A stretch of 64,000 bases of DNA from Bacteroidota bacterium (GCA_013288745.1 JABDBG010000003.1:1207-65206), one strand, 5' to 3'. Shown: positions 22,533-32,998, counted from the stretch's first letter. A program made the numbers and translations. The notes: generated by a model from the sequence alone, not told the origin.

Positions 22533-22555
22533 ATTAAAAAAGCCCCTCAATATTG
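22533..22555. terminator. Left half of the disrupted cmk/gldJ terminator, including the left target-site copy CAATATTG (22548-22555)
   Basis: ATTAAAAAAGCCCCT+CAATATTG; rejoined with 32984-32998 it gives a near-perfect palindrome with A6/T6 tails. Confidence 0.85.
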
Positions 22556-22614
22556 GGAGAATACTGACTTGGTGGGACAAATATTAAAATAAGGCCGTTT
22601 GGCCTTATTTTTTT
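22556..22614 (+). repeat. Left terminal inverted repeat (59 bp)
   Basis: GGAGAATACTGACTTGGTGGGACAAATATTAAAATAAGGCCGTTTGGCCTTATTTTTTT is the exact reverse complement of 32917-32975. Confidence 0.96.
22586..22614. terminator. Terminator-like hairpin inside left TIR
   Basis: AAAATAAGGCC-GTTT-GGCCTTATTTT; T7 run on the + strand (cmk direction), T4 on the - strand (OLD direction). Confidence 0.75.
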
Positions 22615-22642
22615 AGTATAAATCTGAAATTCTATATAAAAC

Positions 22643-24400
22643 CTATAATAACTTAAGTTGGGTGAGTATGGTAGAGATTAAATGAAAACATATTTCTTCT
22701 TCAATCGGATCTTGTATACCATGTTCTTTTAATAATTTTTCAAACTCATTAGCTATCCCTACCTTAGAAATCGGTGTTTTTTTATCTAAAAGTGAATCTG
22801 GTGCATAGTAAAATTTTGTAAATATTTCTTCGGCTATTGCGTTATATTTTTTGGGTTTTTCGACTTGACTAAAATCGGAAACGATTTCTGCTGCGTCTTT
22901 TTGAGTTATTATCTTTTCGCTAACAAGATAATCTAAATACTTTTTTGCAGCTTGGACATATAGATTATGAGGAAGTAGGTCTTCTATAGAAACAGCACCT
23001 TCCTGAATACTACTAATCTTAAAAACAGAAAATTTCTCTTTATTTCCGATAGCACCTTCTTTTTTCTTAACGGTATTATGAATATGAGTATCGTCATCGT
23101 CCATTAATACTATTAAAGGTCTTTCTTCGCTAATAAGTATCTGAACCATTGCGGGTATATTGGCTATAGATCCTGCATCAATTATCGATAATAAATCTGA
23201 AGAAAGAGAAATCGTTCCCTTACTAATAAAATAATTTAATAAGGCTCCAATATATATCCTATCTTCTGGCCCTTCAACCAATAAGGACTTATCTGCATAA
23301 AAGAAACTGTCAGATATATCAATCCCCAATGAAGTCCTTAATGGACGCCAATTATGCAAATATGGCTTGGGATTCAATATTGTACCTTTAGTAACACTTT
23401 TTTCGATAACCCATACATTGTTTGGATGCATTCTATTAATAGAAAATGGAGAATGAGTCGTATAAAAAACAACATGTTCTTTACTAATTTCCTCTAACAG
23501 TTTTACGAAATCTTTTTGTCCAGTAGGATGTAAAGAAAGAGCTGGTTCATCAAATAAAAAGATCGTATTCTTTAACCGTAGCTCAGTAAGGAATATTTTA
23601 TTAATTAAGAAGGAGAAAAAATATTGAAATCCTGTACTTCTTTGTTCAAAAAAACCGATTTTGTGGTAAGCATCATTGAAATATGCGGTAAATATACCGT
23701 CATGAGAATCAATTTTTAATTCTAAGCTATGTTCTTGATTGTAATGTTTATTTAATAATGCACTAATATTTACAGAAGCTCTTTCTCTTATTTCGATCAT
23801 TTGATTGAAAGAACGCATACTAAATTTTTCAATCTCGGCTTCTGTTATACCACCCAAAGCTAGAAGTCTAAAAAATGAATGAAATTTAGGATTCTCTCTA
23901 TCCTCCAAAAATTCTTTATAGTCAAATGGAGAAATAATAAAATCCTCTCTTTCATATAATTCTATATATGGTAAGAGTTCAAATAGTTCTTTTTCTAACT
24001 TATTCCAGTCCGCTGGAAATCTTGATTGTTCTTTACCAAATGTAAGTCCACCAACTAGTTGTAATTGTAGTATATTATTCTCCTTTATATTTTTATTAAC
24101 CGTTACCTGTAATTTTATAATGGCACTTAAATCATAACTTCCGTTTTGAACTAGAATTTTTACAGCACTCTGTTTTAACCTAGTAATATCAGGTACATCA
24201 AGTTCATATTCGCCAATTATTGCTGTATTATCTGATAATTCGATATCACTAGCAGATCCACCTAACAAGGAAATTGCTTGTAAAATATTGGATTTCCCAG
24301 ATTCATTTTTGCCAATTAAACAATGCAAATTGGAAGAAGGAACCAATTCAAGGTTCTTAATAGATTTAAAATTCCTAATGTTTATTTTTTTTAGCCTCAT
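22643..24400 (-). CDS. OLD-family ABC-ATPase/TOPRIM nuclease (stand-alone)
   Basis: Walker A IGKNESGKS, signature-like RSTG, Walker B/D-loop FLFDEPALSLHP, H-loop TTHSPF, TOPRIM LVEGPED and LMDDD, SIEDLL. Confidence 0.88.
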   Translation of the reverse strand: MRLKKINIRNFKSIKNLELVPSSNLHCLIGKNESGKSNILQAISLLGGSASDIELSDNTAIIGEYELDVPDITRLKQSAVKILVQNGSYDLSAIIKLQVTVNKNIKENNILQLQLVGGLTFGKEQSRFPADWNKLEKELFELLPYIELYEREDFIISPFDYKEFLEDRENPKFHSFFRLLALGGITEAEIEKFSMRSFNQMIEIRERASVNISALLNKHYNQEHSLELKIDSHDGIFTAYFNDAYHKIGFFEQRSTGFQYFFSFLINKIFLTELRLKNTIFLFDEPALSLHPTGQKDFVKLLEEISKEHVVFYTTHSPFSINRMHPNNVWVIEKSVTKGTILNPKPYLHNWRPLRTSLGIDISDSFFYADKSLLVEGPEDRIYIGALLNYFISKGTISLSSDLLSIIDAGSIANIPAMVQILISEERPLIVLMDDDDTHIHNTVKKKEGAIGNKEKFSVFKISSIQEGAVSIEDLLPHNLYVQAAKKYLDYLVSEKIITQKDAAEIVSDFSQVEKPKKYNAIAEEIFTKFYYAPDSLLDKKTPISKVGIANEFEKLLKEHGIQDPIEEEICFHLISTILTQLKLL

Positions 24401-24479
24401 AGGTGAGTTTAGTTTGGTATTATACCAGTAAAAATAAGCTGATTATACTAAATCAAGATATTTATAGCTTAAAAAATAG

Positions 24480-24644
24480 ATGAAGCATCTGGTTACTAGC
24501 ATTAGGATCAAACAATTACAAATTAATGATGAACAAGATCCAATAAGAAAGCAAAAATTAGAAATGGAGTTAGAAATATTACAAAAACAACAGAATATAG
24601 AAGCTTTAAGGAAACGGCTTGAACAATTAATAAAAAAACCTTAG
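24480..24644 (+). CDS. Small coiled-coil protein (54 aa; absent from the ORF track)
   Basis: MKHLVTSIRIKQLQINDEQDPIRKQKLEMELEILQKQQNIEALRKRLEQLIKKP*; divergent from OLD. Confidence 0.5.
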   Translation: MKHLVTSIRIKQLQINDEQDPIRKQKLEMELEILQKQQNIEALRKRLEQLIKKP

Positions 24645-24696
24645 AATACTGTTTACTATTTCATGGTTATTGTTTATTCTGGAATAAACAATAACC

Positions 24697-24915
24697 ATGA
24701 ATTGTCAAAAATGCGAGCAAACAGAAAAATATAAAGTCTTATACTATAATTTTTTTCAAAAGATATTTAAAGAAATACATGATTTTGATAAGACCAATAT
24801 TAATAAACTCAATGCCATATCTAATCACATAAAAGATACTCTTATTATGCATGGTGAAATTAATGCCGAATTCGCTAATTCACTATTTCATATACATAGA
24901 GATACTGACCAGTAA
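24697..24915 (+). CDS. Hypothetical protein (N-terminal CxxC)
   Basis: 72-aa ORF MNCQKCE; A-rich leader; 3' end overlaps the convergent ORF by 41 bp. Confidence 0.45.
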   Translation: MNCQKCEQTEKYKVLYYNFFQKIFKEIHDFDKTNINKLNAISNHIKDTLIMHGEINAEFANSLFHIHRDTDQ

Positions 24916-31956: not shown

Positions 31957-31963
31957 CCTCTTG

Positions 31964-32617
31964 TTAATTATCCTGCTTCTGTATTTCAGTCAACATTATA
32001 TTAATGAATAGTTTATAAACACCATCTCCATCTAAGAATGAAATAAACAAAATCGTTCCTACTGATATAACCGATATTACTATAAATGCAATTATAAACC
32101 AGAATGAACTTCCCCATATTAAGATCCAAACTGTTAATGCCTGTAAAATAAATGACATTTCATTTGACATCATGGTAACCATTCCCTTATAAGTATTTGC
32201 CCCATCTTTTAATTCCGTTGATCTAGCTCCATAAATAAATGTTCCTAATTTAATCATTGTTCCAGCGTGTTTCCTTAGAACATCAATAAAATGATTTTTA
32301 TTGATGTTAGTAGACATCTTAATAGCTCTCTTCTTCACGAAGTAACTAATCAGTCGCACCAACAACCAGTAATATATGAATGCCACTATTCCTATACATG
32401 TAAGACTTTTTAAAAAGGTATGGTGGATATAATCATCAATATTAGATTGAGTCCAATATGAGCCAGTAAGCCATAATGTGTAACTCCCATAAAACAAATT
32501 GTACACGTATGATGCAATAATAATGGTAAATGCTATTCTGATTATAAGCATTATTTTATAACTTGAAAGAGCCATTATTGCAATTACTAAACCAACTGCT
32601 GCTAAAATACATTCCAT
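31964..32617 (-). CDS. Hypothetical multi-pass membrane protein
   Basis: 217 aa, 4-5 hydrophobic segments; convergent with the transposase. Confidence 0.72.
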   Translation of the reverse strand: MECILAAVGLVIAIMALSSYKIMLIIRIAFTIIIASYVYNLFYGSYTLWLTGSYWTQSNIDDYIHHTFLKSLTCIGIVAFIYYWLLVRLISYFVKKRAIKMSTNINKNHFIDVLRKHAGTMIKLGTFIYGARSTELKDGANTYKGMVTMMSNEMSFILQALTVWILIWGSSFWFIIAFIVISVISVGTILFISFLDGDGVYKLFINIMLTEIQKQDN

Positions 32618-32686
32618 TTTGTAGTTTTAAGACTATAAGATAGCTATAAAATTATTTACTATCTTCCTAATCTAAATCTACGAACT

Positions 32687-32905
32687 ATGAAATCAACCAG
32701 CTTTAATGTTGTAATTAAAATGACTTATAAAGGGAATCCCATAAATAAAGAAGAATACGAATCCAATAGTGAAATTCAAGATTCTTTACCAACACGAGAA
32801 GAAGCTTTAAAGGAAAAAGCAAGGATAGAGGGTTTAGCAAAAGCAGGTGTTATGTATGTACTGACTTGTTCTGAAAATGGCTTTTCTGTAGCACCACCAT
32901 TGTAA
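32687..32905 (+). CDS. Hypothetical protein
   Basis: 72-aa ORF ending 11 bp before the right TIR. Confidence 0.6.
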   Translation: MKSTSFNVVIKMTYKGNPINKEEYESNSEIQDSLPTREEALKEKARIEGLAKAGVMYVLTCSENGFSVAPPL

Positions 32906-32916
32906 CATAATATTGA

Positions 32917-32975
32917 AAAAAAATAAGGCCAAACGGCCTTATTTTAATATTTGTCCCACCAAGTCAGTATTCTCC
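32917..32975 (-). repeat. Right terminal inverted repeat (59 bp), containing a terminator-like hairpin
   Basis: AAAAAAATAAGGCCAAACGGCCTTATTTTAATATTTGTCCCACCAAGTCAGTATTCTCC. Confidence 0.96.
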
Positions 32976-32998
32976 CAATATTGAAGGGCTTTTTTAAT
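32976..32998. terminator. Right target-site copy CAATATTG (32976-32983) plus right half of the disrupted terminator
   Basis: CAATATTG+AAGGGCTTTTTTAAT, ending 12 bp before the gldJ stop codon. Confidence 0.85.

Follow-up and report, generated by a model that had tools for sequence, protein, structure and literature searches.

We analyzed a 64,000-nt stretch of DNA from a Bacteroidota metagenome-assembled genome (MAG) (GCA_013288745.1, JABDBG010000003.1:1207-65206; hereafter the window) and found at positions 22556-32975 an element which, with a probability of roughly 0.8, represents a single complete insertion sequence (IS) of the IS1595 family that carries cargo genes (a so-called transporter IS), has inserted into the loop of a terminator hairpin and belongs to a clade with a general preference for hairpins.

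An IS1595 element within a terminator hairpin

The element spans 10,420 bp, and its two 59-bp ends are identical as reverse complements at 59/59 positions. The 8-mer CAATATTG flanks it directly on both sides, and deletion of the element together with one 8-mer leaves cmk and a gldJ-like gene separated by 97 nt. The spacer thus restored folds into an 18-bp hairpin with CAATATTG at its apex (-28.1 kcal/mol; -18.4 kcal/mol for the central 52 nt), composed of an A-tract on one side, a GC stem and a T-tract on the other side. The perfect inverted repeats, the flanking 8-mers and the restored palindrome, all proposed in an initial annotation of the window, are thereby confirmed. At up to three mismatches, a 24-nt pattern of the element tip occurs at only two places in the window and never in shuffled sequences, and the exact pattern had no match in a genome collection of 185,579 species. 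A search with the element end as DNA against 400 genomes of the family returned only short matches to its GC hairpin part, which we regard as spurious. The host MAG (1.96 Mb in 84 contigs, 72% complete) contains one pair of these ends. The G/C content of the element is 30.8%, compared to 36.8% in the flanks, which points to a foreign origin.

CAATATTG is identical to its reverse complement. The sequence of the window by itself is therefore compatible with two readings: either a palindromic target was duplicated over 8 bp, or the inverted repeat measures 82 bp and belongs entirely to the element, in which case there would be neither a host hairpin nor a duplication. Indeed, the 15-mers outside the two 8-mers are complementary at 14/15 positions, and a repeat search accordingly reports a single 82-nt inverted repeat (99%). 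The latter interpretation becomes barely credible in the light of related elements: all 20 of them (see below) start and end at a homologous GG.. tip, outside of which follow unrelated sequence and mostly non-palindromic 8-bp direct repeats, which sets the boundary at 22556/32975 and makes CAATATTG a genuine duplication. Moreover, gldJ orthologues have a native terminator that lies equally far from their stop codon and matches the outer 15-mer on the gldJ side, and there is no direct repeat outside the 82 bp.

Between the ends lies one intact IS1595 transposase, which scores 182.2 bits against NF033547 (cutoff 75) and keeps all residues that are invariant among 22 aligned members of its clade, so that it may be functional as judged from its sequence. 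The combination of a DDE transposase with an N-terminal zinc ribbon, terminal inverted repeats and an 8-bp duplication is that of the IS1595 family, and the location of non-transposition genes (encoding an OLD nuclease, a helix-turn-helix (HTH) protein, a DUF3761 protein, an HNH protein and about 12 orphan open reading frames (ORFs)) between the ends of a single IS is that of a transporter IS. Thus, the Pfam and NCBIfam scores, the 8-bp repeats of relatives and the cargo genes bear out the earlier assignment to IS1595 elements with passenger genes. The element contains no second IS copy, which agrees with the earlier view that it is not a composite of two ISs; the only other IS1595 matches in the genome are two on other contigs, with 36-43% identity.

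Landing sites of related elements

The transposase is a member of a large clade whose proteins have ~380-390 aa and are found mostly in Chitinophagaceae-type Bacteroidota and nearly always in single copy (long-form elements); the nearest one found is 74% identical to that of the window. To locate the ends of relatives, we searched for inverted repeats and scanned with a position weight matrix derived from those ends that had been identified first. This yielded 20 further elements of 2.5-5.7 kb with tips homologous to those of the window (GGRNAWTACTKAC..GGGACAA), and the 10.4-kb element of the window is the largest of the 21. Directly outside the tips of the relatives are exact 8-bp direct repeats, of which two can be read as 9 bp, and one case carries a mismatch; in all, an 8-bp repeat was counted for 20/21 relatives. 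The duplications of long-form elements all differ in sequence and follow no consensus; most are non-palindromic and some are GC-rich. All relatives examined carry passenger genes as well as the same core, a small ribbon-helix-helix (RHH) ORF followed by the transposase.

The 21 long-form sites (18 analyzed first, plus L079, L087 and L091) were scored for a hairpin with its apex at the duplication, defined by at least six pairs around the repeat centre, a loop of at most 12 nt, centres of loop and repeat at most 1.5 nt apart and a minimum free energy of -11 kcal/mol or lower in 52 nt. An energy-free version of this definition was too lax (22% background) and was tightened accordingly, and an ungapped stem score, blind to hairpins that contain wobble pairs or bulges (L073, L079), was dropped in favor of the fold-based one. 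By this definition, 17/21 duplications (81%) lie at a hairpin apex, compared to 2.0% of all 85,194 host positions in the same loci (binomial 7e-26) and 1.7% of the 33,075 host positions outside ORFs, an enrichment at hairpin loops of ~40x over chance. The loop centre deviates from the repeat centre by only -1 to +0.5 nt. In the reconstructed empty sites, the 8-bp repeat sits atop a GC-stem hairpin, usually with A- and T-tracts, and the stems vary in sequence between sites with complementarity kept. The initial annotation had suggested that the element selects palindromic terminators as landing sites, and enrichment of hairpins at other insertions is what we find; the data support a strong preference and not an absolute rule, since four sites deviate, one of them in a crtI-like gene.

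We also analyzed short-form IS1595 elements, which encode a transposase of ~300 aa without the C-terminal tail of the long form. Here, 6/38 sites (16%) lie at a hairpin apex, which is above background (binomial 1e-4) and far below the long-form value (Fisher 2.3e-6). These comprise 0/6 intact sites of a 1.9-kb multicopy IS in one Bryobacterales genome, 3/23 cargo elements of the first collection and 3/9 elements of a second batch from a phylum-wide genome search, from which L291b was left out because its hairpin score arose only from abutting another IS end. Hence, the tendency varies by degrees within this branch of IS1595 and peaks in the long-form clade. A weak NUMOD-like Pfam match is present in the tail of 19/22 long-form clade members, and RHH homologues of 49-53 aa (55-71% identical to that of the window) occupy the same position in seven relatives. 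As short-form relatives also hit hairpins, the NUMOD-like tail is correlated with the preference and not required for the tendency, and the same applies to the RHH partner.

If insertion were random and only insertions outside genes persisted, non-coding sites would likewise prevail. Purifying selection against genic insertions must act on such single-copy, long-lived cargo elements, and 20/21 long-form sites lie outside long ORFs. Selection alone, however, cannot generate the contrast within non-coding DNA, where 81% of the insertions but only 1.7% of the positions are at a hairpin apex. In addition, it is not obvious that an insertion which splits a terminator would be more neutral than one next to it, and a multicopy short-form IS1595 element as well as most short-form cargo elements persist at sites without hairpins. 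We therefore consider survivorship on its own very unlikely.

The main rival to recognition of structure is a preference for composition, i.e., for an AT-rich 8-mer between GC-rich flanks or for easily bent or melted DNA, with terminators merely being the most frequent sequences of this type and the complementarity of the arms being incidental. Many duplications are indeed AT-rich between GC stems (CAATATTG, TACTTTTA, AAAAAATG, GAAATTTC and the 9-bp ATTAATAAA), short-form relatives include 8-mers like AAGATTTT and AAAATTTC, which are AT-rich and roughly palindromic whether or not a hairpin is present, and two of the long-form exceptions, L273 and L275, have AT-rich duplications without stems. 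On the other hand, three of the four GC-rich long-form duplications (GTCGGAGC, CCTTCGGA, GCAGTTGC and GTGTGGCG) lie on a hairpin apex and the fourth (L087) beside a strong hairpin, off-centre. The G/C content of the arms varies, as the stem of L282 is AT-rich (GCAAT/ATTGC), and composition alone could hardly account for 17 sites that are centred on the dyad to within ~1 nt. We regard an explanation by composition as unlikely, although it deserves more weight than any other alternative considered here.

Several relatives and look-alikes merit separate mention. L088 (~9356-11973) and L090 (~9355-12400), distant long-form elements with the tip GGnnnnAACTACTAATAAAGG, both reside in the motif ..CTGTCAGYCTG-AGCTTGTCG-.. 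with the 9-bp repeat AGCTTGTCG; this motif may be a repeated extragenic target, and its local hairpin is weak. Adjoining one related element, outside of its ends, L278:16938-21173 harbors defence-type genes (nSTAND1 NTPase, SIR2-TIR, patatin and Cas12f/TnpB-like). When a degenerate tip pattern was searched in viral and metagenome collections, mostly chance matches were obtained; genuine ends are suggested for L184 and perhaps L155 only. Many termite-gut metagenome contigs (L153-L229) contain an unrelated repeat family with ATTACTGACATTTCGGGACAAC after ..CTGGG.TATTAC..., again a chance match to the end pattern. Among short-form elements, the 1.9-kb IS1595 element of L134-L147 has at least 14 copies in one Bryobacterales MAG, several of which are flanked by non-matching 8-mers that pair across copies (L138/L143, L143/L139), as expected after recombination between copies. 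In L291 (~6.6-11.4 kb), two different short-form IS1595 elements adjoin with the common 8-mer TCCCAAAA, which suggests that one of them landed directly at the end of its neighbor. The genome of the window itself carries a short-form IS1595 cargo element (L004, G000:C1 ~57.4-61.3 kb) of 2,611 bp with ends GGCACTTATATAG.. and the duplication AATATATT, without a hairpin.

The target site behind gldJ

Conservation analysis of the right host gene showed that an intact hairpin with A-tract, GC stem and T-tract is located 7-25 nt after the gldJ stop codon in 28/29 same-genus relatives, as read from printed folds. A simple terminator rule detected only 15/29 and 17/29 of the gldJ terminators, and undercounts where A- and T-tracts pair. 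In L041, the closest of these relatives, the stem AAAAAAGCCCTTCA ... TGAAGGGCTTTTTTT is nearly equal to the two half-sites of the window. Relatives thus possess the empty-site hairpin that had been predicted. The gene has orthologues in 59/60 genomes of the genus, and we refer to it as gldJ-like because it scores below the TIGR03524 equivalog cutoff (405.7 vs 458.2 bits).

The hairpin had initially been described as a terminator shared by cmk and gldJ. The two genes are indeed convergent in the window. In the relatives searched, however, cmk is not beside gldJ; each of the two genes has a contig of its own, and in 19 same-genus genomes the sequence that follows cmk has no match to the window. 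The target was therefore gldJ's own conserved terminator, with cmk having come to lie on its far side in this lineage, and it is a shared, or bidirectional, terminator here only.

The location of cmk and gldJ on different contigs in all relatives examined would also fit an assembly artefact, in which the contig joins a cmk-side and a gldJ-side locus through a repeated element; the fragmented and incomplete state of the MAG (see above) points the same way. Moreover, in the one public read run with this DNA, which is probably its source, the contig ends at 22571 inside the left end, with no join across the element and no coverage of the element or gldJ. An assembly from k-mers would, however, be expected to break within an inverted repeat of 82 bp in any case. 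As expected for one site, the 8-mer is identical in the two flanks and their stem arms are complementary, and the assembly has only one pair of ends, which renders such a join highly improbable.

The recent activity suggested in the initial annotation found no support: the element is present in single copy in the 72%-complete MAG, no near-identical copy was found elsewhere, its nearest transposase relative is the 74% identical one, and no empty-site reads were found. The perfect identity of the ends was rejected as a sign of recency, since insertion does not create one end as a copy of the other and their identity is therefore no clock.

Two further observations concern this locus. The window contains an unoccupied, perfectly palindromic terminator at 47538-47571 (A-tract, GCCG stem, T-tract) with an identical CAATATTG loop. 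A second, partial gldJ-like gene is located at a contig start of the MAG (G000:C36:1-750; L283); its protein is 61% identical to that of the window, which is below the 70-76% of genus orthologues, and it probably represents a paralogue rather than a contaminant.

Element ends as predicted terminators

A terminator-like hairpin, AAAATAAGGCC-GTTT-GGCCTTATTTT, is present in each of the 59-bp ends (22586-22611 and 32920-32945), and the T-run that follows it faces into the element. In this arrangement, the hairpins are oriented to stop transcription arriving from cmk and gldJ. They are predicted terminators that should restore termination of both genes and shield the element from read-through. In the relatives, an inward-facing terminator-like site is found within 110 nt at 11/34 ends, compared to 2.3% of control windows; 10/17 elements have at least one such end, and only the element of the window has both. 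According to a 2026 survey (PMC13548323), terminator-like sequences at or inside IS ends are a general feature of several families. Subterminal terminator-like hairpins are thus ordinary for ISs, though consistent with an insertion that splits a terminator.

Model of insertion and its limits

The observed anatomy of the element, its duplication, the position of the duplications throughout the family and the intact orthologous terminators of relatives could be accommodated by the following model. The element inserted into double-stranded DNA by ordinary DDE strand transfer. The stagger was 8 bp, and its midpoint fell on the dyad axis of the bidirectional intrinsic terminator behind the gldJ-like gene, so that the loop CAATATTG was duplicated and one stem arm left on each side. 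Placement is a property of the transposase clade, which puts the stagger on the apex of hairpin-forming inverted repeats, and a cruciform, or a symmetric deformable duplex, might be captured by the two-fold symmetric transpososome. Since stem sequences differ between sites, dyad symmetry or secondary structure, and not a sequence word, would be read; for this structure-reading step taken alone, we see the odds as evenly balanced. The NUMOD-like tail or the RHH protein might have a role in targeting. Terminators are by far the most common sites of this kind and lie outside genes, and thereby offer safe landing. In the most far-reaching form of this model, the long-form clade would recognize structure or dyad symmetry independently of sequence at the apex of any stable hairpin or cruciform, place its 8-bp staggered cut there, use terminators as a universal safe harbour and bring replacement terminators in its ends. 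This would amount to structure-guided, protein-only targeting by a cut/copy DDE transposon whose multi-gene cargo, defence genes included, moves across Bacteroidota. We consider this form tentative and lean slightly toward doubt.

A number of points weigh against the proposed hairpin preference and the interpretation of the window built on it. Four of the 21 long-form sites are exceptions: L273 is inside a gene, L275 has no hairpin, L075 has a weak hairpin and L087 has a strong hairpin off-centre. In L273, the 5.0-kb long-form element (L273:4283-9274) lies within a CrtI-like phytoene desaturase gene of a carotenoid cluster, and the same insertion is found in eight contigs. Removal of this element and one repeat restores a continuous CrtI-like ORF of 474 aa, which validates the end calls independently. 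The 16% of hairpin sites among short-form relatives arise without a NUMOD-like tail, and the data are compatible both with recognition of a cruciform or other structure and with a preference for AT-rich DNA that has GC-rich arms on either side.

The sampling adds to these points. The hairpin definition and its thresholds were set after the first sites had been seen. About a dozen more distant long-form loci without determinable ends were left out of all counts (L077, L078, L081-L085, L089, L092 and L102, as well as L063, L068 and L072, which are cut by contig ends). The extra long-form loci L284 and L309, intended as a hold-out, gave no recognizable ends, so that there is no clean hold-out; in L284, L309 and L310, the ends are unrecognizable or off the contig, and the 24 contigs of P0093 represent one insertion. 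At the site itself, the adjacency of cmk and gldJ is absent in all relatives searched and no exact empty junction is available; the element is a single copy in an incomplete MAG, no empty allele of the exact site was seen, and we infer rather than observe the mobility of this very copy.

If the preference is intrinsic to the transposase, it would explain how multi-gene cargo, including an OLD-type nuclease and orphan genes, spreads across Bacteroidota without gene breakage. It would also make it simple to test how a DDE transpososome captures targets of a specific structure and could be developed into a sequence-independent safe-harbour insertion tool for Bacteroidota. For annotation, half-terminators around a genomic island can mark the ends of a transposon.

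Gene content of the element

The element encodes ~19 ORFs, with ~8 kb of passenger genes on the left of the core and 1 kb on its right. The features of the element and its flanks are listed in Table 1. One cargo gene (22643-24400) has the domain composition of the OLD family, an N-terminal ABC-type ATPase (AAA_15/AAA_21) and a C-terminal OLD-like_TOPRIM domain, and probably serves in anti-phage defence. About a dozen cargo ORFs have no match in Pfam, NCBIfam, PADLOC or PHROGs. The C-terminal extension of the transposase shows a weak I-HmuI_NUMOD-like match (1e-3), and a PDB sequence search with this tail gave one weak match (E 0.18), which was not used.

Table 1. Features of the IS1595 element and of its insertion site (window coordinates).
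Feature	Coordinates	Strand	Remarks
cmk (cytidylate kinase), left host gene, reads toward insertion	21802-22485	+	Cytidylate_kin 6.1e-66
Left half of split host terminator, A-tract + GC stem arm	22533-22547	.	14/15 complementary to 32984-32998
Left 8-bp target-site duplication CAATATTG	22548-22555	.	former hairpin loop; same 8-mer at 32976-32983
Left terminal inverted repeat	22556-22614	+	59 bp, tip GGAGAATACTGAC...GGGACAA; tip motif common to 20 related elements
OLD-family ATPase-TOPRIM nuclease, candidate anti-phage gene	22643-24400	-	AAA_15 2e-20, OLD-like_TOPRIM 1.8e-8; PADLOC Old 1.3e-28, GajA 3.9e-26
Three cargo ORFs (110, 210, 203 aa)	24875-26432	-	weak DUF6705 match 0.0038, below gathering; none in NCBIfam, PADLOC, PHROGs
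Cargo Xre-type HTH regulator	26513-26779	+	HTH_3 3e-14
Cargo DUF3761 protein	26804-27097	+	DUF3761 1.8e-21
Cargo ORF (106 aa)	within 26513-27381	+	
Cargo ORF (98 aa)	within 27440-30381	+	phrog_8894 6.4e-12
Cargo protein with bare HNH_3 nuclease domain	27949-28242	+	HNH_3 5e-9
Cargo ORFs (231, 99, 93, 228 aa)	within 27440-30381	+	no family matches
Small RHH-like protein (61 aa), directly upstream of transposase	30542-30727	+	weak NikA-like match 0.0043
IS1595-family DDE transposase (387 aa), intact	30793-31956	+	DDE_Tnp_IS1595 (PF12762) 1.6e-38, Zn_ribbon_IS1595 (PF12760) 1.8e-8
Cargo ORFs right of transposase, 217 aa (-) and 72 aa (+)	31964-32905	.	no family matches
Right terminal inverted repeat	32917-32975	-	59 bp, identical to left end
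Right 8-bp target-site duplication CAATATTG	32976-32983	.	directly outside right end
Right half of split host terminator, GC stem arm + T-tract	32984-32998	.	matches stem of intact gldJ terminator in L041
gldJ-like gliding/type IX secretion system lipoprotein gene, right host gene	33011-34570	-	TIGR03524 GldJ 3.4e-121, FGE-sulfatase 1.5e-37

In the promoter region of the RHH gene, we noted the imperfect palindrome GGAATACA-ATG-TGTTCC (30493-30513). GGAATACA recurs between the RHH gene and the transposase (30745-30775), and the tip of the element contains GAATAC. The 8-mer GGAATACA occurs six times in the window compared to a shuffle mean of 2.2, an excess that is not clear given that 3/100 shuffles reach six. 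The palindrome may be an operator of the RHH protein.

Comparison with known systems

IS1595-family elements with passenger genes were reportedly described by Siguier, Gagnevin and Chandler in 2009 as the ISNwi1+/ISPna2+/ISNha5-type 'transporter IS' of ISfinder. The tips of the window's element (GGnnAnTAC/TAT) appear to resemble the end of the ISNwi1 group. The element shares with transporter ISs the zinc-ribbon DDE transposase (PF12760 and PF12762, NF033547), the inverted repeats, the 8-bp duplication and the cargo, and differs from them by the NUMOD-like C-terminal domain, the conserved RHH partner and the strong preference for hairpin apices. Several papers mention the IS1595 family with passenger genes; in the accessible part of the 2026 survey cited above, IS1595 is not mentioned and insertion into loops is not reported. 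A literature search with little coverage of subscription journals retrieved no report of hairpin or terminator targeting by IS1595.

Among DDE transposases, IS1397 and ISKpn1 of the IS3 family insert into the loops of repetitive extragenic palindromic (REP) sequences, or palindromic units, of enterobacteria. Here, too, a DDE transposase places an element in the loop of an extragenic palindrome, but the transposase is of another family, the duplication has 3-4 bp, the target is one repeated family instead of diverse terminators, and there is no cargo. IS200/IS605 elements are associated with extragenic palindromes or hairpins, a link to hairpin targets that also appears in the 2026 survey (PMC13548323), and IS110-family elements have been associated with REP or hairpin targets (PMC12288879; bioRxiv 10.64898/2026.03.19.712850). 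Both groups differ from our element in their DEDD or HUH enzymes, which are guided by RNA or single-stranded DNA, and lack an 8-bp duplication and long inverted ends; with its IS1595 DDE transposase, inverted ends and 8-bp duplication, the element of the window belongs to neither.

The insertion sites of class C group II introns lie immediately downstream of intrinsic terminators or attC stem-loops. Like the long-form clade, these introns find gene-free landing sites by terminator-type stem-loops whose sequence varies. They differ in being retroelements (ribozyme and reverse transcriptase) that insert downstream of the stem and have neither inverted ends nor a duplication. One study reports class C introns together with integrons (PMC7923331).

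Thus, IS1595 cargo elements with 8-bp duplications as well as hairpin targeting by other enzymes are known, and what is new, as far as we found, is the preference of an IS1595 clade for the hairpin apex. Most DDE transposons are loose in their choice of target, and safe landing is usually achieved by dedicated targeting proteins, as in Tn7, or by guide RNAs, as in CRISPR-associated transposons (CAST) and IS110. The IS1595 clade described here appears to reach safe landing with an ordinary-looking transposase, by aiming at the one structure by which gene ends are marked in almost all bacteria.

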